Assembly (NCBI GenBank): GCA_002347485.1
Contig: DDXM01000037.1
Location: 16,502-80,501, forward strand
DNA from: Anaerolineaceae bacterium UBA2260
Lineage (GTDB): Bacteria; Chloroflexota; Anaerolineae; Anaerolineales; Anaerolineaceae
Direction of reading: 5' to 3'
DNA: 64,000 bases
Under the pieces are notes generated by a model. It did no database searches. It had not been told where the DNA came from and saw nothing but the letters and a program-made list of their open reading frames with translations. Every line of letters begins with the position of its first letter. Within the stretch, counting starts at the first letter, position 1. Both the position numbers and the translations under genes were made by a program. Below are positions 13,410 to 52,433 of this stretch, piece after piece.

Positions 13410-14876
13410 GTGACATTGGGGCTTTCCGGTAAAAAGACGAATCCCGGTCTTGGGATCACGAACGAATATAAACCTCTATTGGTTTCGGGCTTGCTTCTGG
13501 CTGCAGACCTGGTTGCCATCGTGCTGGCGTTCTTTATTTCATTCTTCGCGCGTAAGTGGCTCATTGGTCTAATCGGCGGGGTGTTGAGTTTTGAGCAAGT
13601 TGCCCCGCTCTTTTTGCTCGTTATCATTTTCATCCTTGTCATCTTCGTATTCGCTGGCTTTTACCCCGGGCATGGGCGCACCGGGGTGGTGGAGTTCCGG
13701 GAGATCGTTTACATTGTTTCCTTTGCACACATCATCGTCGGGCTCATAATCTTCATACTTGGGTATGGGCCGCGTTTATCCAGGCTGGTCTTCCTCTTTA
13801 ATTGGATCCTGTCGCTCCTTTTGATCACATCATTCAGATTGATCCTGCACAACCGCGGATCGTTGCAGTCCTGGTGGGGTCAACCGGCGGTGATCATTGG
13901 CGGCTTACAGGATGCCAAAGCAGTTATCTGCCACCTGCAATCAGCGCGGCGCATCGCCTACCGGCCTGTGGCGGCAATCCTCCTTGATCGGGAGGAGTTT
14001 GAAAAATCGATCCTTGGAGTACCCTGCTTTGCGTACTCTGAAAGCCTGCTGGTAGAGATGCGCAAGCTGGACATTCGGTTGGCGATTTTCACCAGCCGCA
14101 CCACATCCGCGCATTTGGGATTCCGCAAATATTTGCAGAACCTGAGCCTGGTCTTCCCGAAACTCATCTATGTGTTGGGGGATTCCCCGCTCAACATGCT
14201 TGCCATGAAAACCATGGATCTCGACGGACACCCCGCGCTGCTTGTTCAATATAATCTGCTCAGCCCGGCGTCGCGTGTGCTGAAGCGCGTTTCCGACCTG
14301 CTGCTCAGCCTGGTATCGCTTGTCATCACTTTTCCACTTTTTCTTTTTTTTAGCCTGTTGATCTGGATCGATTCACCCGGACCAATCATCTACACCCAGC
14401 AGCGAATGGGAAGGGGTGGCAGGATCTTTAACATCTATAAGTTCCGTACAATGGTGGTAGGCGCGGAGGAAAAATTAAAAACCCTGGTCGAGGAAAATGA
14501 AGCTTTGCGCGTGGAATATGAGACCTACCATAAACTGCAAAACGATCCACGTGTCACGCGTGTGGGCAAGTTCCTGCGCAAGATCAGTTTTGACGAATTC
14601 CCCCAGATCCTCAATGTGATCAAGGGTGAGATGAGCTGGGTGGGCCCACGCGCTTACCTGCCCTCTGAACTCGAGCAGATGGGAGATTCGGCAGCGATCA
14701 TTCATCGCGTTTCGCCAGGGTTAACCGGTTGGTGGCAAGTGATGGGAAGGCACAGTTTGAGTTTTAGCGACCGTTTGCGGCTCGATGAATATTACATCAG
14801 CAATTTCTCGTTACTGATGGATGTTTTCATTATCTTAAAAACTTTTTTCGTCGTGATCAGCGGGCGCGGCGCCTGA
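13410..14876 (+). CDS. Polyprenyl-phosphate sugar-phosphate transferase, WbaP-type (TM block, Rossmann-like domain, C-terminal catalytic domain)
   Basis: The C-terminal Bac_transf signature is [26 protein letters not shown] ... [21 protein letters not shown]. It is preceded by about 4 TM helices and an IIGG...ILLD nucleotide-binding-like domain, which is the canonical large-PGT order. Confidence 0.9.
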
Positions 14877-24227: not shown

Positions 24228-25082
24228 TTGGATTGGATCGAAAGATTGGAAAACCACACTGTTACAATATATGATAGTACTACATCTATAACATTCCCAC
24301 AATATCTTGTAAAAACGGTCAGAGATATTCTTCAGTACAGATTCGCCTGGTCGAATTTCGTAAAAACCGGCCTGCGAATTCGCTACCGCAGATCGGTACT
24401 GGGATTCTTTTGGAGTTTGCTTAACCCATTAATCAGCCTGGTCGTGATCGCTACCGCGTTTTCATTTCTATTTAACCGGGATATTAAGAGCTTTGGGATT
24501 TTCCTGTTCGCGGGAATGCTCCCCTACCAGTATATCAGCACCTCCATCCAGCAGGCGACGCTCTCCTTGATCAACGCTGAGGGTTACCTGAAGAAGGTTT
24601 ACCTGCCCCAGATGTTATTCCCGCTGATCACCGTCTCGATCGAAACGGTCAATTTTATTTTCAGCCTGTTCGCCCTTTATATCATCGCCCTTTTCTTCGG
24701 CGCAACTTTCTCGCCGACGGTATTCCTCCTCCCAATTGTCATCTTGATCTTTTTTTTCTTTAATTTGGGCTTGGGCATGTTCCTGTCCGTGTTGAATGTT
24801 TTCTTCAGAGACACACCCAATATCGTGACCGTCCTGTTCTCAGCGCTCTTTTATGCCACCCCGGTTATATACACCCTGGACCGACTTCCCGAAAACCTGC
24901 AGAGGATATTTAAACTCAATCCCCTCCTATATTTTGTAAAACTCTCACGCCTGGTAATCCTGGGGGATGCGCCGATGCACTTTTGGGATTGGATGATTCC
25001 GATCATATTTGCGCTGGTGGCATTATTGATCGGATGCTGGATGATGATGAAGAGCGAAGGAAAGGTCGTTTACAGACTATGA
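24228..25082 (+). CDS. wzm: ABC-2 type polysaccharide/O-antigen export permease (Wzm-like)
   Basis: The 284-aa product has six hydrophobic helices. The N-terminal RYRRSVLGFFWSLLNP motif is characteristic of ABC-2 (Wzm/TagG/KpsM) permeases. The start is TTG. Confidence 0.85.
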   Translation: MDWIERLENHTVTIYDSTTSITFPQYLVKTVRDILQYRFAWSNFVKTGLRIRYRRSVLGFFWSLLNPLISLVVIATAFSFLFNRDIKSFGIFLFAGMLPYQYISTSIQQATLSLINAEGYLKKVYLPQMLFPLITVSIETVNFIFSLFALYIIALFFGATFSPTVFLLPIVILIFFFFNLGLGMFLSVLNVFFRDTPNIVTVLFSALFYATPVIYTLDRLPENLQRIFKLNPLLYFVKLSRLVILGDAPMHFWDWMIPIIFALVALLIGCWMMMKSEGKVVYRL

Positions 25083-25885
25083 TGCCAATCATCGAATTTG
25101 AAAACGTGTCGGTCCAGGTCCGCGCGTATACCAATCCGACCCCAACGCTCAAAGAGACCTTCGTTTCACTTTTTGCGAAACATAAAGGCGCCACCAGTTA
25201 TGCCGAGTTCTTCGCCTTGAGGGATGTCAATCTCAAGATCTATGAGGGTGAACGGGTGGGAATCCTTGGCTTGAACGGGGCGGGTAAATCCACCATGCTT
25301 AAGGTGATCGCAGGGATTTACCGCCCTCATACCGGGCGTGTGATCGTGCGCGGCGAGGTGACCCCGCTGCTCGAAACAAGGGCAGCGATCAACCCTGAAT
25401 TGACCGGGCGCGACAACATTTACCAGTACGGGGCGATCCACTGCATCCCGGCGGAATACGTGCGCTCGAAGGAACAGGAGATCATCGACTTCTCTGAACT
25501 GGGTGATTTTATCAATGTCCCGGCCAAGTATTATTCAACGGGAATGTTCTCGCGGCTGGTTTTTTCGATCGCTACAATGATCGACCCGGATATCCTGATT
25601 ATCGATGAGGTATTCTCGGCAGGAGATTCGAGCTTCGTCGAAAAAGCGACCAACCGCCTCTTGGGCTTGCTGGATAAATCACGCGCGGTGTTTTTTGTTT
25701 CGCATAACATTGAGCAGGTTTTGCGTATCTGCGACCGCATCCTGGTACTGCAGGAGGGAAGGGTTATCAATGATGGTCCCTCAGTCGAAATGGCACAATT
25801 CTACAAAGAGAATATAATTTCCAAGCGCAAGATCGGCATGGTCAACCGATTCCTGGTAGAAAAGCTTAAGGAAAGGAACGGCTAA
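25079..25885 (+). CDS. wzt: ABC-2 polysaccharide export ATP-binding protein (Wzt/TagH-like), no C-terminal carbohydrate-binding domain
   Basis: The ATG at 25079 overlaps the wzm stop (ATGA). Walker A is GLNGAGKST, the signature is YSTGMFSRL and Walker B is ILIIDEV. At about 268 aa it is an NBD only. Confidence 0.88.
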   Translation: MMPIIEFENVSVQVRAYTNPTPTLKETFVSLFAKHKGATSYAEFFALRDVNLKIYEGERVGILGLNGAGKSTMLKVIAGIYRPHTGRVIVRGEVTPLLETRAAINPELTGRDNIYQYGAIHCIPAEYVRSKEQEIIDFSELGDFINVPAKYYSTGMFSRLVFSIATMIDPDILIIDEVFSAGDSSFVEKATNRLLGLLDKSRAVFFVSHNIEQVLRICDRILVLQEGRVINDGPSVEMAQFYKENIISKRKIGMVNRFLVEKLKERNG

Positions 25886-26112: not shown

Positions 26113-26208
26113 AAAAAAACGCGTAGGGATTCGCTGATTTATTGTGACAATCATTGTCCCGATGGCGCGCATTCCACTCAGCTGCTAAGGATATTGAATC
26201 GGATCGAT

Positions 26209-27654
26209 ATGACTCTGCAAAAGCCGACGTTGTACCTGCATGTTGGAACGCACAAGACCGGTACGACTGCTTTACAAACTTCTTTGCAAGCTAGCCGACA
26301 ATTGCTCCTTGACCAGTCTATTCTTTATCCTGAAGGATTATATTGGGGGGGGCATCATGACATCGCCAGGTACATAAAAAATAATTCATACTTGAATTTG
26401 GTTGAAATATTTTTCGAAAACATTAATTCAGAATGTCAACAAAAGAATATCAATAAAGTGGTGATTTCCTCTGAGGATTTCTTCAAGTTTACTAGAGCAG
26501 ATATTCGACGTGAAAAGGCAGAAATTGCCGAAGAATCCCTGGAAAATATGTATAAATTAAAAGAGGTATTGCCTAAAGGTTTTGATATAAAAATTGTTGC
26601 TTACATCCGCAGACAAGATCTAGCGATTGAAGCAAAATACAACCAGCGGGTAAAATTCAAGAATAATTTCACAATTACCGCCAAAGAGTTCAGGGATGAA
26701 ATGATGGACGATATCACCCTAAACTATGATTTTCTTCTTGATCTTTGGGCGAGTGTATTTGGAAATGAAAATATCATTGTGCGGGTATATGAAAAGCAGG
26801 AACTTCCTGATGGTACGGTAGTCGATTTCCTCAAGAAAGTTCTACAGATTACGGATGAGAACGTAATCAAGCAAATCGCGGCTTCTTCAACAATGGAAAA
26901 TCCGCGCTTAAACCGGGATTTACTTGAATATAAGCGAATCCTCAACATGATCTATAAAGATAATCCCCTGGATAGAAATCAGTTGTATCTTGATTTTCTT
27001 CAAGTTGCCTCAGAAATGGAAGGCAGCGATAACTTTAAGGATCTATATTCCATTGAAGAAAGAAGAGCAATTCTTGAACACTATTCTGAATGTAATGCTC
27101 ATGTCGCGAAGATTTTTCTGGGACGGGAAGATGGCAAGTTGTTTAGTGAGTTTACAGAACAGGAAGAAAATTACATACCATACCCCGGATTATCAGTTGA
27201 GAAGGCTATAGAAATTAGCCACAGATTGCAAAACATCAAAATATGTCGCGTCAAAGAGAAAGTCGATTATTTAAATGATTTGGTCACGAGCGTGCAGAAC
27301 TTTAGAGTGATACGAATTTTCCGCAAAATCTTTCATCAATTAAAAAGATCGCAAAATTCATTGCTAATTCACCGGATTGAAAAAAGCGGTTTATTTGACC
27401 AAGAATATTATTTGAATACTTACCCGGAAGTAAAGATCACGGGAATGGACCCCTTAACGCATTACATGGAATACGGGTGGCGGGAAGAATTTAATCCGAG
27501 CAGGAAATTTAATACGTCAATATATTTAAGGCGGTTTCCTGAACTGAGGAGCTCTGGATATTGCCCGCTAGTGCATTATTTAAGAGGGAAAAATAGGTTC
27601 AGAAACCAATCAAATGTTGACGCAATTGAGGAAATTGATCAAGAAGACTATTAA
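26209..27654 (+). CDS. Sulfotransferase-like protein, paralogue 1, with a C-terminal double FDxxYYL...NPLxHY repeat module
   Basis: The N-terminal loop LYLHVGTHKTGTTALQ is 5'-PSB-like, VVISSED follows, and AYIRRQDLAIEAKYNQ is 3'-PB-like. The C-terminus reads SGLFDQEYYLNTYPEVKITGMDPLTHYMEYGWREEFNPSRKFNTSIYLRRFPELRSSGYCPLVHYL. I chose the ATG at 26209 by parallel with paralogue 2. The track's TTG at 26194 is not conserved in paralogue 2. Confidence 0.6.
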   Translation: MTLQKPTLYLHVGTHKTGTTALQTSLQASRQLLLDQSILYPEGLYWGGHHDIARYIKNNSYLNLVEIFFENINSECQQKNINKVVISSEDFFKFTRADIRREKAEIAEESLENMYKLKEVLPKGFDIKIVAYIRRQDLAIEAKYNQRVKFKNNFTITAKEFRDEMMDDITLNYDFLLDLWASVFGNENIIVRVYEKQELPDGTVVDFLKKVLQITDENVIKQIAASSTMENPRLNRDLLEYKRILNMIYKDNPLDRNQLYLDFLQVASEMEGSDNFKDLYSIEERRAILEHYSECNAHVAKIFLGREDGKLFSEFTEQEENYIPYPGLSVEKAIEISHRLQNIKICRVKEKVDYLNDLVTSVQNFRVIRIFRKIFHQLKRSQNSLLIHRIEKSGLFDQEYYLNTYPEVKITGMDPLTHYMEYGWREEFNPSRKFNTSIYLRRFPELRSSGYCPLVHYLRGKNRFRNQSNVDAIEEIDQEDY

Positions 27655-27760
27655 CCAGGAAGTGGAAAATTTCCTTACTTTTACCATCAAATTGAAATTT
27701 TCAAGTTATAAACCCACCAATCACAACTGAATTTTGCTAAAAATCAGCTTAATTTCGGGA

Positions 27761-27769
27761 TGGTATAAT
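27761..27769 (+). promoter_or_regulatory. Extended -10 promoter TGgTATAAT upstream of sulfotransferase-like paralogue 2
   Basis: This is the same 17-nt block as at 26096-26112. It lies 98 nt upstream of the ATG at 27867. Confidence 0.5.
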
Positions 27770-27866
27770 CAAAAATGCTTCGGGTTTTAATTAGACTTGC
27801 ATAATTATTAATTGGCCTAGTGTTGAATAATCAACTTCATATCTAAGGAAATCGAATCGAATCGAT

Positions 27867-29297
27867 ATGACTCTGCAAAAGCCAACTTTGTACCTGCACA
27901 TTGGCACGCATAAGACCGGCACTTCATCCATTCAAATGGCTTTGCATACCCACCGCGAGGAACTGCTCAAGGCGGGTGTGCTTTACCCGGCGCTGAATAA
28001 TGCGTATAATCATTACGAATTGGCAGTTCTTTTAAAGTCACCTGAAGGGATGACAATAATCCAGAACTGGTTTGACGGGATCGTTGAAAAGGTCAATCAG
28101 CGCTCGATCAACAAAGTGGTAATTTCGGCTGAGGCGCTTTATTTCCTGAGGTTTATTGAGTTAGTTAGAACTAAGGATAATCCCCGAAATTCAACTATTA
28201 CTGAAGAAAACTACCGGGAAAAACTCAACAATCTGCGCGCTCTGATCCCGGATATTTTTGACATCAAGGTTGTGGTTTACTTGCGCCGCCAGGATAGTTT
28301 TATCCAATCAGGGTACAGCCAGTTAATAAAAGGATCAGAATACTTTTCTGGTTCCATCAGGGAGTTTATCGACGGCCTCGCAGTTTTCATGGACTATAGC
28401 TTCATGCTGAATCTTTGGGCGGAGATCTTCGGAAAAGAGAACATCCTGGTCAGAGTTTATGAGAAGCAGCAATTACCGGGTGGCAGCGTTCAGGATTTTT
28501 TGCGCGTGATAGAAATACCCACTGATCTCTCCAACATTATCCTTTCAACCACGGACAATTACAACATCCGCCTGAGCAGAGAGCTTTTGGACTATAAACT
28601 GATCTTGAACCAGCTCTTAAAAAATGAAGACCCGGTTCGTAAAGACCAACTGCACTACACCCTCCTAGAGAAATTATCCGAGCAGCCTGAATTCCGCCAG
28701 ACTAACGGAGAATTTCTGACCACTCAGGAAAAACGTGACATCATTTCCCGATATTCCGAGAGCAATGCAAAAGTTGCCCGGGAGTTTTTGGGGCGGGAAG
28801 ATGGGCGCCTGTTCTATGAAGCTTTACCAGAAGAAACAAAAAGTGACAGCTATCCAGGGCTCAGCGTTGAAAGGGCGGTGGAGATCGGCACCCGGTTAAG
28901 CTTCCTGGTCATTGACGGTTATGAGCAGAGAACCAAAATCAAATCCCTTCATTCGGTCCTGTCGTATCCGGAACTGCTTGACGCGCAGGGCTTATTGAAC
29001 ATGTTTCCAATGAAAATCCTCAAGAAGATCTATGTCAAAATCAAGAATGAAAAAGATATTCGGATTATACGGCGCAGCGGCTTATTTGATGCAGAGTATT
29101 ACCTGGCTTACAACCCGGATGTGGCAGCCAGCGGGGTCGAGCCGATCAGGCACTTCGCCTACTCCGGATGGAAAGAACTGCGTAAGCCAAATGATCTGTT
29201 TGATGTCAACGGGTATATTTTAGATCACCCCGAGATCATTCGTTCAGGTATGAACCCCCTGGTTCATAAAATTATTCACAGTAAAGTGGAACGATAA
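27867..29297 (+). CDS. Sulfotransferase-like protein, paralogue 2, with a C-terminal double repeat module
   Basis: Motifs are LYLHIGTHKTGTSSIQ, VVISAEA and VYLRRQDSFIQSGYSQ. The C-terminus reads SGLFDAEYYLAYNPDVAASGVEPIRHFAYSGWKELRKPNDLFDVNGYILDHPEIIRSGMNPLVHKI. Confidence 0.6.
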   Translation: MTLQKPTLYLHIGTHKTGTSSIQMALHTHREELLKAGVLYPALNNAYNHYELAVLLKSPEGMTIIQNWFDGIVEKVNQRSINKVVISAEALYFLRFIELVRTKDNPRNSTITEENYREKLNNLRALIPDIFDIKVVVYLRRQDSFIQSGYSQLIKGSEYFSGSIREFIDGLAVFMDYSFMLNLWAEIFGKENILVRVYEKQQLPGGSVQDFLRVIEIPTDLSNIILSTTDNYNIRLSRELLDYKLILNQLLKNEDPVRKDQLHYTLLEKLSEQPEFRQTNGEFLTTQEKRDIISRYSESNAKVAREFLGREDGRLFYEALPEETKSDSYPGLSVERAVEIGTRLSFLVIDGYEQRTKIKSLHSVLSYPELLDAQGLLNMFPMKILKKIYVKIKNEKDIRIIRRSGLFDAEYYLAYNPDVAASGVEPIRHFAYSGWKELRKPNDLFDVNGYILDHPEIIRSGMNPLVHKIIHSKVER

Positions 29298-29300
29298 ACT

Positions 29301-30689
29301 ATGTCCTCTATCAAACCAACCCTCTTCATCCATATCGGTTTACCAAAGACTGGAACTACGGCATTACAAACAGCTTTGTCCGCCAGTCAGAAGCTTCTTC
29401 TTGAAAACAGGATCTATTATCCCAACGCGTTTTTTTGGGGCGGTCACCATGATATCGCCCGCTGGTTGAAGCACGGGAGTGATGATACTTTGCTCATCAA
29501 TTTTTTTGATGAGATGAAATCCGGGTGTTTGGAAAACGCGTGCGAAAAGGTTGTCATTTCCTCCGAGGGTTTCTATTATCCGATCGCCAGCGAGATTGAA
29601 AGAGATAAGGCAACCTGCTCGCTCGAGATTCGGAAGAATCTTTTGAGGTTAAGGCAAGTCATTCCTGAGGACTTTAACGTGAAAATCGTGGCATACCTGC
29701 GGCGGCAAGACCTCGCCCTTGACTCCAACTACAATCAGCGCGTTAAGTACAGTCACTCTTTCACGCTTTCTCCAAGGGAATTTTTGCAACGCACTTTTGA
29801 ACGGTTCAACCGGGACTACGATTTTCTCCTGGATGCGTGGGCTGAGGTGTTCGGGATTGGAAATATTATCGTCAGAGTGTATGAAAAAGGGCAACTTCCT
29901 GATGGTACGATCGTTGACTTTTTACGGAACGTATTGCAGATCGAAGATGACGGACTGATCAAGAAGGTCACCGCTTCTTCAACCATCGAAAATCCCCGAT
30001 TGAGCCGTGACCTGTTGGAATATAAGCGTATTTTAAACAAGATTTATAGCAACCAGCCATTGATGCGCGATCAGTTGTACCTTGATTTCCTGCAAGTATC
30101 TCAGCAGATGGAAGGCGCAACGAAATCCGGGAACATCTTCACGGTTGAAGAAAGGCTGGAAATCCTCTCCAAATACCAGGAAGGCAACGAAAGAGTGGCA
30201 AGGAAATTCCTGGGTCGGGAAGACGGGAGACTGTTTTACGATCCCTTGCCGGATAAAGAAAAGGACCCTCCGTACCCGGGCTTATCCGTTGAAAAATCCA
30301 TCGAGATCAGTTGGCGATTGCATTTGCTGGAAATGAATCGCATCGAGAAGAATGTGGATGCGTTAAACGCCTTCATATCACAAATTAAAGGACTGTTTGG
30401 CGTAAGAGTATTCAGAAAGATTTACAGGTTTTTTAAAGAAAGGAAGGCTTCTGAAATTTATCGAAGAATCGAAAAGAGCGAGCTGTTTGATCGCGAATAT
30501 TACCTGAGCACCTATCCTGTGGTAAAGGAGACAGGTTTGGATCCCCTGCAGCATTACCTGAATCATGGATGGAAAGAGGGTTTTAATCCAAGCCGCAACT
30601 TTAACACGGCTGAATATCTCTTAAAATATCCAGATCTCGCCAGCAATGATTTGAACCCACTTGTTCATTACCTGCAAAATAGAAAGTAA
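29301..30689 (+). CDS. Sulfotransferase-like protein, paralogue 3 (closest to paralogue 1), with a C-terminal double repeat module
   Basis: Motifs are LFIHIGLPKTGTTALQ, VVISSEG and AYLRRQDLALDSNYNQ. Long near-identical stretches are shared with paralogue 1, for example NIIVRVYEK..LPDGT.VDFL, ENPRL.RDLLEYKRILN and QLYLDFLQV. The C-terminus reads SELFDREYYLSTYPVVKETGLDPLQHYLNHGWKEGFNPSRNFNTAEYLLKYPDLASNDLNPLVHYL. The gene starts 3 nt after the paralogue 2 stop. Confidence 0.6.
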   Translation: MSSIKPTLFIHIGLPKTGTTALQTALSASQKLLLENRIYYPNAFFWGGHHDIARWLKHGSDDTLLINFFDEMKSGCLENACEKVVISSEGFYYPIASEIERDKATCSLEIRKNLLRLRQVIPEDFNVKIVAYLRRQDLALDSNYNQRVKYSHSFTLSPREFLQRTFERFNRDYDFLLDAWAEVFGIGNIIVRVYEKGQLPDGTIVDFLRNVLQIEDDGLIKKVTASSTIENPRLSRDLLEYKRILNKIYSNQPLMRDQLYLDFLQVSQQMEGATKSGNIFTVEERLEILSKYQEGNERVARKFLGREDGRLFYDPLPDKEKDPPYPGLSVEKSIEISWRLHLLEMNRIEKNVDALNAFISQIKGLFGVRVFRKIYRFFKERKASEIYRRIEKSELFDREYYLSTYPVVKETGLDPLQHYLNHGWKEGFNPSRNFNTAEYLLKYPDLASNDLNPLVHYLQNRK

Positions 30690-39224: not shown

Positions 39225-40757
39225 ATGAGTCGAGCTGTCGATTTCTCTGATAAGCAGGTTTATAGGCAGGTAACTCTCACAGCGGCAACCCAAATTAGAA
39301 AGAGAGGGCTGCGATTTTTAAAACGCGCTTTGGATATTTTTGCGGCGTTTTGGGGCTTATTTTTCTCTTCCCCTTTGTTTCTTTTTATTGCCATACGCAT
39401 TAAACGAGAATCTCCCGGGCCTGTTTTTTACCGTGGTGACCGCGTCGGGAGAAATGGAAAGCCTTTTAAAATTCTCAAGTTCCGCACCATGTATGAATCT
39501 CCCGAAAATCACAACGGTTCAAGATTAACCGGCAAGAACGATTCACGCGTGACCCCGTTCGGTTCTTGGCTGCGCCGGACAAAGCTTAATGAACTGCCGC
39601 AGTTGTGGAATGTGCTGGTCGGAGAGATGAGCCTGGTGGGGCCGCGGCCGGAAGACCCGCACTTCGTGGAGCAATGGCCGGAGGAGGTGAGAGTAGAAGT
39701 ATTATCGGTGCGACCGGGGATGACCAGCCCCGCGTCCGTTACGTACCGGGATGAGGAAAACCTGCTAACCGGCAGTAGCGTTCTGGATGAATATTTACGC
39801 ACCATCTTGCCGGAAAAATTGCGCCTTGACCAGCTTTATGTCCACCATTACACCTTCTTGGGTGACCTGGACACCATTTTTATGACATTGGTGATGCTGC
39901 TGCCGGGGTTACGAACCAAGAAAGTCCGGGAAGATGTACTGTTCCAGGGTCCGCTGGTTAGTTTTGCCCGCCGATACGTTTCCTGGTTTTTGATTGACAC
40001 ATTGGTCGCATTTATCTCGATTTCAATAGTATCTTTGTTGGCGCGCATATCCGGCCCTTTCAATATCGGCTTTGGCCGCATGGTTGGGATCGCCTTGGGT
40101 CTGGCGTTTATCATGGGTTTGACGAATACATTATTCGGCCTGAAAAACATCTCGTGGCGGTATGCCAGCCCAACGCATGTGTTTGACCTGGGATTATCAA
40201 CTCTGGTTGGGATGCTGGTTTTCTCGTTACTGGTCTTGCCCGTCCTGGGTATTAACCTGCCTGTAATCTTACTGGTGTTATTTGGATTGATCACATTGGG
40301 TGGCTTCGTGACTGTACGCTATCGCGAAAGATTGATCACCGGGCTGGCTTCCCGTTGGATCCACTGGCGCAGTCAGAACAGCCTGATGGGTGAGCGGATT
40401 CTGATCATCGGCGCAGGCGATGCCGGTCAACTGGCGATCTGGCTGCTGGAAAAGAGCAATCTTTCGCCAGCTTTTTCGGTCGTGGGAATGGTGGATGATG
40501 ACTATAAAAAAGTCGGACAGCGATTTAACGGTTATGAAGTGCTCGGCACCACCCGTGATATACCGGAGATTGTGGTAAAAAAGAGTATCGGGTTGATCAT
40601 GTTTGCCATCACCCGGGTAAACAAAAAGGACAAGGAGCGCATTCTCGAAACCTGCCGTGATCTGAACGTGCACATGATCATGGTACCGGATCTGCTTAAA
40701 GTGGTCAGTGACTACATTACCCAGCAAACCCGCGAGGTGGTGGAAACTAATGAGTGA
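39225..40757 (+). CDS. Phosphoglycosyl transferase with permuted architecture (N-terminal Bac_transf catalytic domain, TM block, C-terminal Rossmann-like domain)
   Basis: The N-terminus has the re-entrant helix ALDIFAAFWGLFFSSPLFLFIAIRIK, then ESPGPVFYRGDRVGRNGKPFKILKFRTM and NELPQLWNVLVGEMSLVGPRPE. About 4 TM helices follow (aa ~250-370). The C-terminus reads ERILIIGAGDAGQLAIWLLEKS...VVGMVDDDYKKVGQRFNGYEVLG. Confidence 0.85.
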   Translation: MSRAVDFSDKQVYRQVTLTAATQIRKRGLRFLKRALDIFAAFWGLFFSSPLFLFIAIRIKRESPGPVFYRGDRVGRNGKPFKILKFRTMYESPENHNGSRLTGKNDSRVTPFGSWLRRTKLNELPQLWNVLVGEMSLVGPRPEDPHFVEQWPEEVRVEVLSVRPGMTSPASVTYRDEENLLTGSSVLDEYLRTILPEKLRLDQLYVHHYTFLGDLDTIFMTLVMLLPGLRTKKVREDVLFQGPLVSFARRYVSWFLIDTLVAFISISIVSLLARISGPFNIGFGRMVGIALGLAFIMGLTNTLFGLKNISWRYASPTHVFDLGLSTLVGMLVFSLLVLPVLGINLPVILLVLFGLITLGGFVTVRYRERLITGLASRWIHWRSQNSLMGERILIIGAGDAGQLAIWLLEKSNLSPAFSVVGMVDDDYKKVGQRFNGYEVLGTTRDIPEIVVKKSIGLIMFAITRVNKKDKERILETCRDLNVHMIMVPDLLKVVSDYITQQTREVVETNE

Positions 40758-45822: not shown

Positions 45823-47742
45823 TCACCAATGCCCGCTGGGGGTATTGGTAGGCGTGGGTGTATTGCTGGGGGTCGGCGTGTTGGTGATCGTGGGCGTCGC
45901 GTAGGTTCCCGTGGGGGTAATGGTCAGCGTACCGGTGGGGGTTTTGGTCGCGGTTGCTGTGGAGGTAGGCCGGGTGGGGCGGGGTGTTATTGTGGGGCGC
46001 GGCGTGGAGGTTGGAACCATGGTTGAAAACACGGGGATCCTGGCGGTATCGCCTTCGGAAATATCATAGATATAATCCACAGCGCCCTGGCAGGCGGGCT
46101 CAAGGTTGGTCGCCACGTGCAGCCAATCCAAAGGATCGCCGGCTTTCCATGTTCTGGCCATCGCAGTCCAAAGGCAGCCGGGTCCCGCGTTGTAGTTGAC
46201 CAACGTGAAGCGCCACAGATCCGTGTAACTGCTCATCAATCCGGAGGTCTGGCTGGTCAGGTTATAGAGCATGCGGTCCACTTGCGAGCAGTTGGCGACC
46301 AGGGTTTCGCCGAAGATCTGTACGCTATTATTCGCCTGTGTCAGGTCGATGCCCAGCGGGCAATCGGCGCAAGTCGCGTTCACCTCTTGCACCAGTACGG
46401 CGCGCAGGATCGACTTTTGACTCTCAGGTAACGTGCCGTAACCCTGGCGGCAGGTCGACTCGAGCAGGACCAGCGGGCAGAACTGGTTGTAAAAATCAGG
46501 GTTCCACAACAGCGTGGTGTCAGCGCCTTTTTCGGTGAGTTGTCCCAGACCGGCTTCTTCGATGTCGTGGTAAATACCCGGCCATAACTGGCTTTCGCGG
46601 GCAAACATGTTCTTCATCAACTGTGCCGGAATGCCAGTGTCCAGTGATGTGAGCATGATCTCTTCATCGAACTGGTTCTGCCACTCGACCAACGCCGCCG
46701 CAGCTTTTTCCACCCCGCACAGGTTAGCCGCGGTCGGGTAGTCAAGTCCACCGTTGGGACAATCACTGGCATCCACTTCACCACGCTGGATAAGCATGGC
46801 AGCCAGGTAATGCAGAGATAAGGAAGATGAGAGGTCAGAAATATTATTCGGCGTGCCCAGCCAGGCGGGAGCGCCTTCCACTGGCGGGAAGGATTGCCAG
46901 ATGCTGGCGCAGGCGCTGTGAGATTGACCACGCCATTGCGGGCTGACGATGTCAATGTAGTATCCCACATGCTGCGGGAGCTCAATTTGTTCTGAATTTT
47001 CACCCCAGGGTAACACCCTCAAGTAAGCCGTGTATTCCTCGGTCGTATCGCCAAAGCTTGATTCTCCTTTGAAGGTGAGCGTCACGCCGTGATCGCCAGT
47101 CGCATAGACTGGCAATTCGCAAACCTCACTCTCGCAGGAAAAACTTTTTCCGTCCAAAGTACCAGAAATTCGGATAATGCGCTCATTGGCGAGTTTTTCT
47201 TCGCCCGTGAGGATGATCTTCGGTTCACCTGCCCACTTATTCCCGGTGCCTTCGATCAAATTTCCCTTTATGGAAATCCATACTTCTGGTTTGGGGAGCG
47301 CTACCTGGATCTCGGTGGTGCCTGCCTGGCTCAGGTTCTTTTGCAAATAAAACCCGGAACAACCCGAGGTATCTGATCCATCTTCTGCGGCAGAGCAGGG
47401 TGGAGTAAGCACCCACGCCTCGTAAAGGGCGTAACCACAAATGTTCTGCATGTCCAGGGAAGTGGGAAATCCATCGTGGTCAAGGCTGAGCTGGCACGCG
47501 ACGGTATTGTTAGCCCAACGCACCAGCCACCACTCATGTTCTGTGGCGTCGACGGTGACCCAGGCCACGCGTTCGGGTTCCTCTTGCGCAGAAGCGGGTG
47601 AAACTGAATTGCGGGCAAGGTAAATTGCAAGCACGACCGACGTTAAAAGCAATAACGCTACCAGTGCTTTTCGATTCAACCGGTAAAAAACCCCACTCGA
47701 GTGCATTCGCAGAATAATGTTCCTAGCTAAGAAGGATAGCAT
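45823..47742 (-). CDS. Membrane-anchored lytic transglycosylase (SLT-domain) protein with a C-terminal Pro/Thr-rich tail
   Basis: The N-terminal anchor reads ALVALLLLTSVVLAIYLA. The SLT motifs appear in order: FARESQLWPG (catalytic Glu-Ser), EAGLGQLT and VNYNAGPG. The C-terminal ~70 aa are almost only P, T, S and N. Confidence 0.65.
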   Translation of the reverse strand: MLSFLARNIILRMHSSGVFYRLNRKALVALLLLTSVVLAIYLARNSVSPASAQEEPERVAWVTVDATEHEWWLVRWANNTVACQLSLDHDGFPTSLDMQNICGYALYEAWVLTPPCSAAEDGSDTSGCSGFYLQKNLSQAGTTEIQVALPKPEVWISIKGNLIEGTGNKWAGEPKIILTGEEKLANERIIRISGTLDGKSFSCESEVCELPVYATGDHGVTLTFKGESSFGDTTEEYTAYLRVLPWGENSEQIELPQHVGYYIDIVSPQWRGQSHSACASIWQSFPPVEGAPAWLGTPNNISDLSSSLSLHYLAAMLIQRGEVDASDCPNGGLDYPTAANLCGVEKAAAALVEWQNQFDEEIMLTSLDTGIPAQLMKNMFARESQLWPGIYHDIEEAGLGQLTEKGADTTLLWNPDFYNQFCPLVLLESTCRQGYGTLPESQKSILRAVLVQEVNATCADCPLGIDLTQANNSVQIFGETLVANCSQVDRMLYNLTSQTSGLMSSYTDLWRFTLVNYNAGPGCLWTAMARTWKAGDPLDWLHVATNLEPACQGAVDYIYDISEGDTARIPVFSTMVPTSTPRPTITPRPTRPTSTATATKTPTGTLTITPTGTYATPTITNTPTPSNTPTPTNTPSGHW

Positions 47743-47908: not shown

Positions 47909-49642
47909 TTGTATATGGACAACGATTTCGAGGAACGCAGCAGCCTGGAAAGCCTCCTGGATTACTCCCAAACGCTGTGGCGCTGGCTTTGGCTTTTGTT
48001 ATTGGTAGCCATCCTGGCTGGGGCAGTGGCGTATTTCATCTCTGACCAGCAACCGCGGGTCTACCAATCTTCATCGCAGGCGATTGTGAACGTCGTGTCT
48101 CGCTCGGATTACTATGACCCGTATACTGCCAATTATTCGAGCCAGCGCCTGGCTGAGACTTACGCCCAAACTATGGTGACTGAATCCCTTCTTCAGGCTG
48201 TTTCCGAAAAGTTAGGGTACCCGGTAACCGGAACAGTCAAAGCAACATCGGTGGAAAATTCCCCAATATTTACCGTGACCGTGACGGATTCCGATCCACA
48301 AAAAGCAGCGGATACGGCCAATGCCGTGGTTGCCGCTTTCGCGGAAAAGGTAGTCAGGGACCAATCCTCCAGGTTCCAGGAATTAAAATCCAGCCTTGAG
48401 GTCGAGATCGCGACGTTGGATGAAAAATTATCAGAGATCTATTATGAGTTATCCTTGCTCGAAATGAAAGACCGGGAATATCAGGAAGCGCTTAAGAGAA
48501 ATGCAGAACTTGAAAATGCCGGCCTCGAACCAGTAAATGTAGAAAAAGACCCCCAGGATTATGTCAAGAAGGCTGAACTTGAGTTGATCAAGTCACAGTA
48601 TCAGTCCAATCGCTCATCGTTATTTACGAACCTGCAATCCATCCGGCTAACCGAGGTACAGTCCGCAACCACGATCAGCCAATTAAACCAGGCGGTTCCA
48701 GTTTATGACCCGATCCAGCCTCAACCCATGAAGAGCGCTGGTCTGGCTGCCCTGGTGGGGTTCATGCTCGCGGCTGGCGTCGTGTTCACGGTCGCTTTCC
48801 TGGAAGACGAGATCCGTGACCCGAGCGAGATCACACACCGTTGGGGCGTACCCGTGATTGGCATTATTACCAATTTTGGCTCAGACGAAACCCCTTTGAT
48901 CACTATGAGCAAACCACGTTTACCTGTCTCCGAAGCTTTTCGCTCCTTACGCACCAACCTGCAGTTTAGTGGTATCGATTCTCCCTTAAAAACTTTGCTG
49001 GTAACCAGTCCATCACCTGCGGATGGGAAATCATCAGTGGCGGCCAACCTGGCGACTGTGTTGGCGCAAAATGATAAAAATGTGGTGGTGGTGGATGGGG
49101 ATATGCGCCGCCCCACCATCCACAAGATTTTCAAACTCTCCAATCGGCTGGGTCTGTCTGATTATTTTCTCCGCGCGCCGGAGAAGATGTCAGGTGTTGT
49201 GAAGAAAACCCCGGTGAACAATTTGAGCATTATTACTTCCGGCAGCCTGCCGCCCAATCCTTCAGAGCTGCTAAGTTCGACCAAAATGCGGGACGTGGTC
49301 ACACTACTGGCGAAGCATTTTGATATGGTGATCCTGGACTCTCCACCGCTTCTGGCAGTCACCGATGCGCTTGTGTTGACCAAGATCGTGGATGGAGTAA
49401 TCCTGGTTGTTGATCCGAAAAAGACTAAACGCGCCGGTATTCGTCAGGCAATCGAGCAATTGCAGCGGGTTGATGCCAGGTTGCTTGGCGTGGTGCTGAA
49501 CAATATCAAGATCAAACGATCGAGCTATTACTATAATCGAGAGTATTACTACAGCAAGCATTATGGTAAAACAGGTGGCGATTCGTCACCCGAGCAGGTG
49601 GAAGCATCAGATGAATCAGGAACCAGTCAAGGGAGAGAGTAA
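47909..49642 (+). CDS. Polysaccharide co-polymerase (Wzz-type) fused to a BY-tyrosine kinase (Wzc / CpsC-CpsD-like)
   Basis: The N-terminal TM and chain-length-determinant region with a coiled coil is followed by a second TM. Walker A is SPSPADGKSSVAANLA, Walker A' is VVVVDGDMRRP and Walker B is MVILDSPPL. A C-terminal Tyr cluster SSYYYNREYYYSKHY lies at 49520-49564. The start is either TTG 47909 or ATG 47915. Confidence 0.88.
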   Translation: MYMDNDFEERSSLESLLDYSQTLWRWLWLLLLVAILAGAVAYFISDQQPRVYQSSSQAIVNVVSRSDYYDPYTANYSSQRLAETYAQTMVTESLLQAVSEKLGYPVTGTVKATSVENSPIFTVTVTDSDPQKAADTANAVVAAFAEKVVRDQSSRFQELKSSLEVEIATLDEKLSEIYYELSLLEMKDREYQEALKRNAELENAGLEPVNVEKDPQDYVKKAELELIKSQYQSNRSSLFTNLQSIRLTEVQSATTISQLNQAVPVYDPIQPQPMKSAGLAALVGFMLAAGVVFTVAFLEDEIRDPSEITHRWGVPVIGIITNFGSDETPLITMSKPRLPVSEAFRSLRTNLQFSGIDSPLKTLLVTSPSPADGKSSVAANLATVLAQNDKNVVVVDGDMRRPTIHKIFKLSNRLGLSDYFLRAPEKMSGVVKKTPVNNLSIITSGSLPPNPSELLSSTKMRDVVTLLAKHFDMVILDSPPLLAVTDALVLTKIVDGVILVVDPKKTKRAGIRQAIEQLQRVDARLLGVVLNNIKIKRSSYYYNREYYYSKHYGKTGGDSSPEQVEASDESGTSQGRE

Positions 49643-50536
49643 TTGGCATTCTTCAAGGCTTCCAACGGCTCAACCGAACCATCGCAGAATAAGGGGAACG
49701 AAAACGGTTTCTGCCCATTTATTGGCTTTGCAGATGATCCTGAAACGGCGCTAGCTTACCCTTCACCCTCTAACTTTTGTTACCACAGCAAACCGATCGC
49801 TCCAGTAAGCTTAAACCACCAGCGAAAAGTCTGCCTTACGCTGGGATATGGATTTTGCCCTGTCTACCAAAACGAAACCCAAGAACCCTTACCCAGGGAA
49901 TTACGCGGTACATTACCCAGCAGGCATAAACCAAACACCCGGATTCCCTTCGTAATCCTTATTCTGGTAATACTGGCGGGTTGGATCGTTTTATCACTCC
50001 TGGGTATCATTCGTATCCCTGGTCTTTCTTTTCCACATGTAGCACGACAAGCCACAGCGACATTCGTGGAACCCACTCCACACGTGGTAGTCTTTATGCC
50101 TTCACCCACGGCTACTCCTGTTGCTACGACTCAACCTACCGCAACGGAAACGAAAGCTCTCGCTACTCCATTTTTACCTCACGCGATAGAAACCCCATTT
50201 GGAGATAATCCCAAGCTGGTCATCCATCAGGTCCAGGCAGGGGAGGGTTACATTTTCCTCGCTGAACGATTTGGCACGACGGTGGAAGCGATCAAAGCCC
50301 TCAATTATGAGTTGCCAGAGTCTCTTTGGGTAAATACTATCCTTGTCATCCCGATCAACACGGATTCGGTCGACGGGCTGCCGAAATTTTCTGTACGCGA
50401 GATCACCACGGAGGGGTTAACGATTGAAGATTATGCGCAGCAGATGCAACTGGATGCTGGTTTACTGAAACGTTATAATGCTCTGCCGGACGAGTACCTG
50501 CTCGAGATGGGCGAGTTGATCATCATTCCAAATTAA
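49643..50536 (+). CDS. Membrane-anchored protein: N-terminal four-Cys cytoplasmic motif, TM helix, Thr/Pro linker, two LysM domains
   Basis: The N-terminus reads FCPFIGFADDPETALAYPSPSNFCYH...QRKVCLTLGYGFCPVY. The TM helix reads IPFVILILVILAGWIVLSLLGII. The LysM-like segments are HQVQAGEGYIFLAERFGTTVEAIKALN...ILVIPIN and TIEDYAQQMQLDAGLLKRYNAL...GELIIIPN. The start is a TTG directly after the wzc stop and is uncertain. Confidence 0.6.
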   Translation: MAFFKASNGSTEPSQNKGNENGFCPFIGFADDPETALAYPSPSNFCYHSKPIAPVSLNHQRKVCLTLGYGFCPVYQNETQEPLPRELRGTLPSRHKPNTRIPFVILILVILAGWIVLSLLGIIRIPGLSFPHVARQATATFVEPTPHVVVFMPSPTATPVATTQPTATETKALATPFLPHAIETPFGDNPKLVIHQVQAGEGYIFLAERFGTTVEAIKALNYELPESLWVNTILVIPINTDSVDGLPKFSVREITTEGLTIEDYAQQMQLDAGLLKRYNALPDEYLLEMGELIIIPN

Positions 50537-50561
50537 GGTGGCTGAACAACCAGAAGCCTGA

Positions 50562-52127
50562 ATGCCGAATATCCTCTTTGTGTGCAGCGCCAATCGTTTC
50601 CGCTCTGTGATCGCAGCAGGTTATTTCAAGTCACTTATTCAAAGTTTGAAACTTCCTGGTGATTGGGAGATCGGTTCAGCGGGTATTTGGGCGAGCGATA
50701 GGGCTCAGCCGTTGCGAGAAGCTGTGGATTTTGCCAGATCCCGTGGTTTCAATATCACTTCCGAAACATCCAGAGAAATTAATGAAAACCTGGTCAATAC
50801 GGCCGACCTGATCATTGTGATGACCAGTGGGCAAAAAGAAGCGATCGAGAATGAATTCAACCAAACCGTTGGAAAAATAACCCTGTTGAGCGATATATGC
50901 GTCGGACAGGTTTTTGATATCCCGGACCCGGTTTCCTCACCGGAAGAGGACGCAAACATCATCGCGAGTGAGATTTGTGATCTACTGCGAGCTGGATTGC
51001 CAAGAATCCTCACGCGTGTAGGGGTTCCATCCTCCACGAAAATGATCGCTCAACTACCGAATGAATCTGTTATCAAAACCAACGATTCGCCAGTAGTGGC
51101 GCAAAAAAAGAAGCGCAGGTGGTGGATCCTCGTTCTGATCCTGCTCATTATCTGCGCAGCCGGATATTATTTCTGGACGAACCCGATTCTCGGTCGACAA
51201 TTGCCGCAATTCACCGGTGAAGCAATAAAAACCTTCACACCTTTACCAGCGGTGCAGACTGCGCTTTCCGGCAATACTACTTCGAGCACCCAGCAATCTC
51301 CTGTAATTGAAAATACACAGAAGGACATGGAAGGGGTAACAAAGAAATCACAAGCGGTTTGCGGACAGACCGAACCGATGATCATTCTGGCTTTGGGGAT
51401 CGATGAGGTTGAGCAGGCGGATGTGATCCGTCTTGTGCGCGTCGATTTCACCGAACGAAAAGTCCTGATACTTTCCATTCCGCGCGATTTCTGGGTGCCC
51501 ATACCGGGCTTGGAGCAGTACGATATCACCCAATTCCGTATCAACGCCGCGTATGGTTACGGTCAATATTTTGATGGACCAGGACAGGGAGTGGTCAAGT
51601 TTTCCGAGACCGTCTACTACAATTACGGGATAAACTTTGACCATTACGGGGCAGTCCATTTTGAGGTCTTTGAGCAAATGATTGATGCGATCGGCGGGGT
51701 GGATCTCTATCTCGACGGACCGATCGGGGCGTACGGGAGCGCTGGGTACCACCACATGAATGGCGCTGATGCGTTGTTGTTCGCTCGAGAAAGGAATTAT
51801 GACCAGGATGCCTACCGGATCCAGCGTCAATCGGTCATCATCGCCGCATTTATCGACAAATTAAAAAAACCTGATTACCTGCCGAAGATCCCTGCCCTGG
51901 CGGCGCAGATCATTCAGGATAAGGGAGTTGTGACTGATATCTCTTTGAGCGACGTGTATACCTTTGTTTGTTTCATCCAGGAGTTGAATGAGGACTCGAT
52001 TGTATTCATGGACATGCCGGTGGAAACATACACCCCGATGATCACCAATTTGGGGAGTTACATCAAAGTACCTAAACCTGAAGCGACCGTCTATATCCAG
52101 GACCTTATCCTGAACGGGAACTATTAG
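50562..52127 (+). CDS. Fusion protein: low-molecular-weight protein-tyrosine phosphatase, TM helix, LytR-CpsA-Psr (LCP) domain
   Basis: - aa 1-150: ILFVCSANRFRSVIAAGYF (the CX5R(S/T) P-loop) and VFDIPDP (the Asp loop).
- aa ~187-205: TM helix WWILVLILLIICAAGYYFW.
- aa ~265-440: ILALGIDE...ADVIRLVRVD...LSIPRDFWVPIPG...RINAAYGYG...INFDHYGAVHFEVFEQMIDAIGGVDL...MNGADALLFARER...YRIQRQ, matching LCP. Confidence 0.85.
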   Translation: MPNILFVCSANRFRSVIAAGYFKSLIQSLKLPGDWEIGSAGIWASDRAQPLREAVDFARSRGFNITSETSREINENLVNTADLIIVMTSGQKEAIENEFNQTVGKITLLSDICVGQVFDIPDPVSSPEEDANIIASEICDLLRAGLPRILTRVGVPSSTKMIAQLPNESVIKTNDSPVVAQKKKRRWWILVLILLIICAAGYYFWTNPILGRQLPQFTGEAIKTFTPLPAVQTALSGNTTSSTQQSPVIENTQKDMEGVTKKSQAVCGQTEPMIILALGIDEVEQADVIRLVRVDFTERKVLILSIPRDFWVPIPGLEQYDITQFRINAAYGYGQYFDGPGQGVVKFSETVYYNYGINFDHYGAVHFEVFEQMIDAIGGVDLYLDGPIGAYGSAGYHHMNGADALLFARERNYDQDAYRIQRQSVIIAAFIDKLKKPDYLPKIPALAAQIIQDKGVVTDISLSDVYTFVCFIQELNEDSIVFMDMPVETYTPMITNLGSYIKVPKPEATVYIQDLILNGNY

Positions 52128-52208
52128 TTGCCCATAACTGATAATTATCCAAGCGAGCGGTATTGGATATCGTAAATTTTCCAGCGCATACATTCCATCT
52201 ACGATTGG

Positions 52209-52236
52209 TTGACAATACCCACTCCCTTGTTATATG
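52209..52236 (+). promoter_or_regulatory. Candidate promoter TTGACA, 16-nt spacer, TGtTATATG with a long (~190 nt) leader before the 1418-aa gene
   Basis: TTGACA lies at 52209-52214 and TGT+TATATG at 52228-52236. Confidence 0.4.
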
Positions 52237-52433
52237 TTTTCTTTCAAGGGTGCTCGCGACCGGGTTTTCTTTTTTTATATTGTTCTGCTATATTTATCTT
52301 AATCTCCTAACAGAAATCCGCAAGATCAGGCATGAGCAAGGAAAATGGAGTAGCTGGTTTCTGAAAATCCGGCAATAATTTTCAAACTCGACTGTTATTA
52401 AAACCACTGGAACATCGACAAGGAGTCAATGAG

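Follow-up and report, generated by a model that had tools for sequence, protein, structure and literature searches.

The 64,000-nucleotide stretch of Anaerolineaceae bacterium UBA2260 analyzed here (contig DDXM01000037.1, positions 16,502 to 80,501 of the forward strand; hereafter the window) carries at 50562..52127, on the + strand, a gene whose single 521-residue product joins a phosphatase, a linker, a transmembrane (TM) helix, a stalk and a LytR-CpsA-Psr (LCP) domain. The N-terminal part (residues 1-150; 50562..51011) has the fold of low-molecular-weight protein-tyrosine phosphatases (LMW-PTPs) and is predicted to be cytoplasmic; the variable cytoplasmic linker that follows (residues 151-186; 51012..51119) terminates in a basic KKKRR patch. 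The TM helix (residues 187-205; 51120..51176; Kyte-Doolittle peak 2.15), the only hydrophobic segment of the protein, leads through an extracytoplasmic stalk predicted to be disordered (residues 206-265; 51177..51356) into the extracytoplasmic LCP catalytic domain (residues 266-521; 51357..52124). Both enzymatic halves are recovered by profile searches above threshold, with Pfam by a wide margin: Pfam LMWPc (PF01451) matches residues 4-140 with 70.3 bits (cut-off 23.2; E 2.5e-19), Pfam LytR_cpsA_psr (PF03816) matches residues 286-435 with 96.8 bits (cut-off 24.6; E 1.8e-27), and the NCBIfam LCP domain model TIGR00350 scores 78.3 bits against a cut-off of 62.3. A first-pass annotation of the locus had described this three-part architecture in one open reading frame (ORF) from a handful of motifs, every one of which is present in the translation (VCSANRFRS and DIPDP, residues 119-123, in the N-domain; LGIDE, SIPRDFW, INAAYGYG, AIGGVDL and ARER in the LCP part), and the profiles bear the description out.

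The distribution of charge around the single TM helix, with six lysine or arginine residues among the 15 ahead of it and one behind, predicts an N-in topology, placing the phosphatase inside and the LCP domain outside. The gene is therefore predicted to encode a bitopic membrane protein, and the inside-outside arrangement proposed in the first-pass annotation is self-consistent. From 58 homologues, AlphaFold2 yields a model whose mean predicted local distance difference test score (pLDDT) is 81, with high confidence in both domains and in the TM helix, which it places at residues 184-206; pLDDT falls below 50 in linker residues 168-182 and stalk residues 220-262. Searched against the PDB with Foldseek, the full model retrieves LCP ligases first and LMW-PTP-fold enzymes second. 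Across 14 fused homologues, the linker (151-186) is weakly conserved, differs in length while staying in frame, and lacks a conserved internal methionine, and the stalk varies in both sequence and length. At the other end, the protein opens directly on strand one of the phosphatase fold and its N-terminus agrees with the start of all homologues aligned, so the start codon is right.

The N-domain displays the full set of LMW-PTP superfamily hallmarks, namely the profile match, a C-X5-R-(S/T) loop, an Asp-Pro loop about 110 residues further on, and the fold itself. The phosphate-binding P-loop (C8-S-A-N-R-F-R14-S15; 50583-50606, + strand) is strongly constrained: C8, N11, R12, F13, R14 and S15 are invariant among the 14 fused homologues, and the longer stretch FVCSANRFRS is close to invariant throughout, with S9 conserved in at least 90%. 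The same is true of the D119-I-P-D122-P123 loop (50916-50930, + strand), where DIPDPV is invariant save for I120, itself conserved in at least 90%. In a PDB sequence search, the best matches are 4egs and YwlE (E 2.6e-13 to 2e-11), with D122-P123 aligned to the Asp-Pro of YwlE. Foldseek returns the same company, with template-modeling scores (TM-scores) of 0.86 for 4egs, 0.83-0.87 for the YwlE entries 4etn and 4kk3, and 0.81 for bovine LMW-PTP, alongside YfkJ and eukaryotic LMW-PTPs. Cys8 is the predicted nucleophile, Arg14 and Ser15 the predicted P-loop catalytic residues, and Asp122 the predicted general acid.

The LCP domain is equally intact. Across 58 homologues, D281, D287, R290, R293, R308, D309, R411, R419 and Q423 never vary, and R409 is conserved in at least 90%; the Asp and Arg residues align with motifs of LcpA and TagV in the PDB sequence search, and we take them to be the pyrophosphate-binding active site seen in the Cps2A and TagT structures. 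Matches of the domain in that search include LcpA/MsrR, TagV, Cps2A and TagT, and Foldseek gives TM-scores of 0.80 for TagV and 0.83 for LcpA, with Cps2A and TagT next. Because the equivalog models for CpsA, TagU and LytR all score far under their cut-offs, no specific orthology is claimed for this domain. Two cysteines, Cys267 and Cys470 (51360-51362 and 51969-51971), are invariant in the 58 LCP homologues of this Chloroflexota group and may form an extracytoplasmic disulfide. A separate unusual LCP architecture was encountered in two Chloroflexota metagenome proteins (P0099 and P0100), in which the LCP domain is fused to HEAT/armadillo-type repeats.

A continuous frame across two ordinarily separate enzymes invites the suspicion of a hidden stop codon or frameshift at the junction, a check that the first-pass annotation had itself called for. 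None was found. Contigs from four independent public runs (a hydrocarbon metagenome of 2013, a 2017 run, a bioreactor metagenome of 2024 and a 2025 run) cover 50400-52300 collinearly and free of indels, that of the 2024 bioreactor differing from the window by three substitutions over the interval. Among 5.8 billion proteins searched, about 24 protein clusters of 518-532 residues and 55-100% identity carry both Pfam domains; many of them are seen on several contigs, and their sources span JGI, ENA, NCBI and Logan. The frame is likewise intact in five further GTDB species, all of them metagenome-assembled genomes (MAGs) of Anaerolineaceae. In public annotations these proteins go by one of two names, 'protein-tyrosine phosphatase' or 'LCP family protein'. 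Among the fused genes, the ratio of nonsynonymous to synonymous divergence (dN/dS, Nei-Gojobori) is 0.10-0.14 for the phosphatase, 0.03-0.07 for the LCP domain and about 0.2 for the linker; the low values in both halves indicate that purifying selection maintains phosphatase and LCP domain alike in the fused state.

Two further observations concern the copies themselves. A second contig of the same genome (C11; L007 1-2355) bears another set of kinase, LysM protein and fused PTP-LCP gene, cut by the contig end, whose products are 89%, 65% and 66% identical to the respective window proteins; with bin contamination at about 4%, this set may be a true paralogue or may derive from a relative's contig placed in the bin. 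In addition, the fused genes of two loci (L015 6001-7593 and L017 6001-7593) are mosaic with respect to each other: synonymous difference is 0.009 over the first ~800 nucleotides (nts), from phosphatase to stalk, and 0.33 over the LCP part, a pattern suggesting that recombination broke the sequence close to where stalk and LCP domain meet.

The origin of the fusion can be read from relatives in which its halves are separate genes. In an Anaerolinea sp. (L019), a 160-residue phosphatase ends in TAA, and the ATG of the LCP gene follows 16 nts later in another frame. Two species of the window's own genus (L023 and L024) have a 168-residue phosphatase ORF followed by a 345-residue LCP protein, with an ATGA stop-start overlap in L023; a fourth locus (L036) encodes phosphatase and LCP proteins of 159 and 363 residues overlapping at TAATG. 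These four split pairs keep the operon order of the fused loci, and differ in yielding two polypeptides, a soluble phosphatase of ~160 residues and an LCP protein of ~345-363 residues, in place of the window's single protein. The split orthologues of L019, L023 and L024 are 43-48% identical to the fusion over the phosphatase and 49-55% over the LCP domain. In a maximum-likelihood tree built from the LCP parts, 24 fused proteins form one clade (Shimodaira-Hasegawa-like approximate likelihood ratio test, SH-aLRT, 93). Outside it branch, in succession, an LCP-only clade that belongs to another locus, the split clade of L019 type and the split clade of the window's genus. The split protein of L036 (P0027) is nested inside the fused clade. 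Since the stop and start codons overlap by only 1-4 nts in L023 and L036, a single indel, that is, a one-base shift, would fuse or separate the two genes. The simplest reading of these sequences is one merger of translationally coupled neighbors followed by at least one later separation or second merger; the fusion is recent, clade-restricted and apparently reversible. An adjoining phosphatase gene was also expected beside the closest LCP-only homologue (P0029); there is none there, and P0029 lies in a different glycan locus.

The fusion is rare by every search made. Among 151 genomes of the family, the phosphatase subfamily occurs in 74 and is fused in the window's genome only. Out of 1.84 billion representative proteins, the N-domain's best 150 relatives include a single long one, the representative of the fused clade, and when long proteins were searched for similarity confined to the N-domain, the matches listed comprised 22 proteins of this same clade and no other. 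In a sample of 301 genomes from the phylum, no LCP domain was present in the seven longest LMWPc-containing ORFs, which are a tandem LMWPc protein, an aquaporin-ArsC type of fusion, or merely long GC-rich frames; LMWPc domains that are themselves divergent would escape these searches for independent LMWPc-LCP fusions. Two other phosphatase architectures came to light. In a genome of the same family (G112; L022 2724-4262, - strand), a classical LMW-PTP with the loop CTGNICRS continues within a 513-codon frame into a polytopic membrane region lacking a Pfam match, and so represents another membrane-tethered phosphatase. In a genome of the same phylum (G219; L038 2074-3501, - strand), a 476-codon frame encodes tandem LMWPc domains with the loops CRANQCRS and CLGNTRRS, followed by a C-terminal region without assignment.

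The fused gene is the last of three co-directional genes (47909-52127) separated by gaps of 0 and 25 nts. The first of them (47909..49642, + strand) encodes a Wzc-like bacterial tyrosine kinase (BY-kinase) composed of a Wzz-type membrane domain (Pfam Wzz) and a kinase domain (TIGR01007, E 3e-60). Its Walker A GKS, VDGDMRRP and ILDSPP motifs can be recognized, as can the tail motif YYYNREYYYSKHY, and its C-terminal tail, SSYYYNREYYYSKHYG, contains seven tyrosines, so that the first-pass annotation was correct in placing such a kinase two genes upstream of the fusion. The middle gene (49643..50536, + strand) encodes a second bitopic protein, here termed Cys4/TM/LysM. It has a four-cysteine motif on the cytoplasmic side, a TM helix at residues 105-123 and, on the extracytoplasmic side, a LysM domain that Pfam recovers with 30.2 bits (cut-off 20.9). 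The four-cysteine motif (CPFIGF...NFCYH...QRKVC...FCPVYQ) is kept in the homologue at L019 (5085-5978). At the very end of the LysM gene, a 38-nt unitig (50499-50536) has 8-50x the depth of the flanking contig in two metagenome runs, consistent with a stretch common to several copies or strains. With 59-74% identity, the order kinase, LysM protein, PTP-LCP is found again on metagenome contigs as well as in GTDB MAGs. Of 14 genome-derived Anaerolineaceae loci with the phosphatase subfamily, 10 have the LysM/TM homologue directly upstream of it, 5 have a BY-kinase nearby and 4 have an LCP gene directly downstream; the metagenome contig L020 likewise pairs the LysM/TM homologue with a stand-alone phosphatase. 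UBA2260 itself has two BY-kinases above the model cut-off, each adjoining a PTP-LCP gene, and it encodes penicillin-binding proteins (transpeptidases), so peptidoglycan is available as an acceptor.

Divergent from this module, at 45823..47742 on the - strand, lies a gene for a secreted, Cys-rich protein of 639 residues with a signal or TM segment at residues 25-43 and a Thr/Pro-rich tail. It is the divergent neighbor in all fused loci with enough flanking sequence, and L001, L013 and L015-L017 have copies 68-80% identical at this position. Its motifs ARESQ, GLGQLT and NYNAGPG resemble those of lytic transglycosylases; the protein may be lytic-transglycosylase-like, but its Pfam SLT match, at 19.7 bits, falls short of the cut-off of 21.3, and the PDB gave no match. 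More broadly, the window is a glycan biosynthesis region with sugar-nucleotide enzymes, several glycosyltransferases and sulfate-activation genes. It includes two Bac_transf initiating transferases (13410-14876 and 39225-40757) and an ABC-2 exporter (24228-25885). Among the 39 window ORFs scanned, neither Wzx nor Wzy gave a Pfam match, although a divergent Wzy can escape Pfam. The ORFs at 26194-30689 have neither Pfam matches nor hydrophobic segments.

Each part of this set has well-studied counterparts. In Escherichia coli, as here, an LMW-PTP-fold enzyme with CX5R(S) and Asp-Pro loops (Wzb) is encoded next to a Wzc-type kinase. Wzb is a soluble protein of 147 residues with the P-loop CVGNICRS, whereas the phosphatase here is membrane-tethered, has the loop CSANRFRS, and scores 18.6 bits with the NCBIfam Wzb model against a cut-off of 243 (the Wzb and Etp models together give 18.6-19 bits, with cut-offs of 243-247). 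YwlE of Bacillus subtilis, which with its relatives gives the nearest solved matches by sequence (E ~1e-11 to 1e-13) as well as by fold, is also soluble. On the LCP side, TagT/U/V, LcpA (MsrR) and Cps2A share the fold, the conserved Asp and Arg residues, and the arrangement in which the N-terminus is cytoplasmic and a single TM helix leads to the LCP domain outside; their cytoplasmic tail is short, while here it is a complete 150-residue enzyme. The topology of MsrR has been shown (PMC2632651). The closest parallel for the set as a whole is the streptococcal CpsA-CpsB-CpsC-CpsD system, which likewise combines an LCP protein (CpsA), a phosphatase (CpsB) and a Tyr-cluster autokinase (CpsD, with CpsC as its modulator) in one operon (PMC12220298), within a polysaccharide locus of a peptidoglycan-bearing bacterium. 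The differences are that the CpsABCD phosphatase is of the PHP type and here an LMW-PTP fold is covalently joined to the LCP domain; that the kinase is a single Wzc-like polypeptide instead of CpsC and CpsD; that the Cys4/TM/LysM protein intervenes; and that Wzx and Wzy are not detected nearby. The kinase, phosphatase and LCP protein of a BY-kinase module do occur in one operon here, with its flippase (Wzx) and polymerase (Wzy) undetected by Pfam in the window ORFs scanned. A 2008 survey of 1,079 LCP proteins records add-on domains, such as the PAP2-LCP fusion of Enterococcus faecalis EF_3245, and no LMW-PTP (PMC2632651). In a capsule review of 2025, phosphatase and LCP protein figure as separate components (PMC12220298). 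A full-text literature search found no description of the LMWPc-LCP architecture and no paper naming both domains together. The first-pass annotation had known of no characterized example, and the architecture is indeed not previously described in the literature searched; what is new is the fusion, the set itself being CpsABCD-like.

The reading we favor, with a probability of roughly 0.6, is that the gene encodes a bitopic PTP-LCP protein that arose from merged, coupled neighbors, and we infer for its halves a kinase-dephosphorylating and a wall-ligating role. The ancestral operon had the order Wzc-like tyrosine autokinase, Cys4/TM/LysM protein, ptp and lcp, and the translationally coupled ptp and lcp were joined into one frame within a single lineage of Anaerolineaceae. 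The phosphatase, in the role of Wzb or CpsB, would strip phosphate from the tyrosine cluster of the adjacent kinase, while the LCP domain, in the role of CpsA, would take the polysaccharide that the surrounding glycan locus produces on a lipid carrier and attach it to peptidoglycan. Being fused would keep the phosphatase at the membrane beside the kinase, in 1:1 ratio with the ligase, and the flexible stalk would bear the LCP domain. The first-pass annotation went further, proposing that the fusion would physically couple kinase dephosphorylation to wall attachment. The architecture behind that proposal is real. The fusion is not a deep design feature, given that same-genus relatives are split and a split form sits inside the fused clade. 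With the halves encoded as neighboring coupled genes in close relatives, it may contribute little to the mechanism apart from tethering and a fixed stoichiometry, yet it supports a functional partnership of phosphatase and ligase. A stronger version, in which kinase, LysM protein, atypical phosphatase and LCP domain constitute one trans-membrane machine whose tyrosine-phosphorylation cycle directly gates the attachment of polymer to peptidoglycan, is speculative and we regard it as rather unlikely.

Several observations weigh against the favored reading, most of them touching the substrate of the phosphatase. In classical LMW-PTPs, the P-loop is C-x-G-N-[IVT]-C-R-S (also given as C-[LVT]-G-N-[IV]-C-R-S) and Asp-Pro is followed by an aromatic residue. 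The P-loop here, C-S-A-N-R-F-R-S, departs from this motif, the residue following Asp-Pro is a valine (D-P-V-S), and the Asp-Pro loop is poorly modeled by AlphaFold2 (pLDDT below 50 at residues 122-127). The nearest relatives of solved structure are arginine phosphatases of the YwlE class, and the window offers an ABC-2 exporter without detected Wzx or Wzy, which is unusual for a BY-kinase-controlled pathway. The P-loop that the first-pass annotation called intact is so as a CX5R(S) loop with its Asp-Pro partner, although it is atypical and not the classical Wzb-like tyrosine-phosphatase motif. Stand-alone relatives of the N-domain commonly have the loop C-[ST]-A-N-[RQ]-x-R-S and likewise lack a conserved aromatic after Asp-Pro, and the atypical loop together with the missing aromatic assigns the N-domain to an uncharacterized LMW-PTP subfamily, for which C-[ST]-A-N-R-[FY]-R-S may serve as a signature; its phosphotyrosine specificity would follow from operon context. 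One might then suppose that the target is not the kinase at all, and is instead phosphoarginine, a small phosphoester, or a different phosphoprotein, for example a glycosyltransferase or the tail of the LysM protein, a supposition also encouraged by the Cys4/TM/LysM protein, rather than the kinase, being the most constant neighbor of the subfamily. The fifth residue of the P-loop is informative in this respect: it is threonine in YwlE, where it confers phosphoarginine specificity, and isoleucine or valine in classical tyrosine phosphatases. Here that position is occupied by Arg12, and a search with PF00217 for a McsB-type arginine kinase gave no match in the genome, which is 80% complete; a YwlE-type arginine phosphatase is not supported. 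An arsenate reductase (ArsC), the identity that the first-pass annotation had named as a way for its proposal to fail, is rejected: the only cysteines of the N-domain are at positions 8, 113 and 139, with none at the relay positions equivalent to Cys82 and Cys89, the 31-32 bits scored with ArsC models lie far below the cut-offs of 174-215, and ArsC structure matches in the PDB sequence search span residues 3-90 only. With a Tyr-cluster BY-kinase two genes upstream in every fused locus examined with enough upstream sequence, a substrate other than the kinase appears improbable to us.

A better-placed alternative, though still a doubtful one, accepts the fusion as real and holds it to be near-neutral: a one-base shift merged overlapping genes, whose products act as their separate counterparts do and are linked by nothing beyond co-expression. 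Close relatives switch between the split and the fused state, as the placement of P0027 and the split same-genus genomes attest, and this also tells against the favored reading; the 1-4 nt overlaps of the split forms (ATGA in L023, TAATG in L036) make the change mechanically trivial, and the linker is weakly conserved, all as expected if joining the halves mattered little. However, the fused state has been kept across lineages 26-45% apart in protein sequence, the frame persists through linkers of differing length, and two fused copies occur in one bin. Moreover, ptp and lcp stay adjacent even where they are split, and this speaks for a functional link. That the frame owes its continuity to an artifact of assembly or sequencing, with a stop or frameshift concealed between two genes, is scarcely credible: the split arrangement is the commoner one in the family, but four independent runs, 24 full-length clusters and five further GTDB species all agree on an intact frame. 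On balance, the bitopic PTP-LCP protein derived from coupled neighbors, with its putative kinase-dephosphorylating and wall-ligating halves, accounts best for the locus.

In capsule and exopolysaccharide systems, how the intracellular kinase/phosphatase cycle is linked to the release of polymer or its attachment to the wall outside the cell is still unclear. A fused phosphatase-ligase predicts that both activities reside in one complex, and its split orthologues provide natural controls. If the trans-membrane machine outlined above were true, the fusion would be a 'Rosetta stone' for a physical partnership of phosphatase and ligase, one that could extend to CpsA/CpsB-type systems generally. 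For a phylum that is poorly studied and common in anaerobic digesters, the locus also brings into view an LMW-PTP subfamily with an unusual loop and a constant Cys4/TM/LysM partner.

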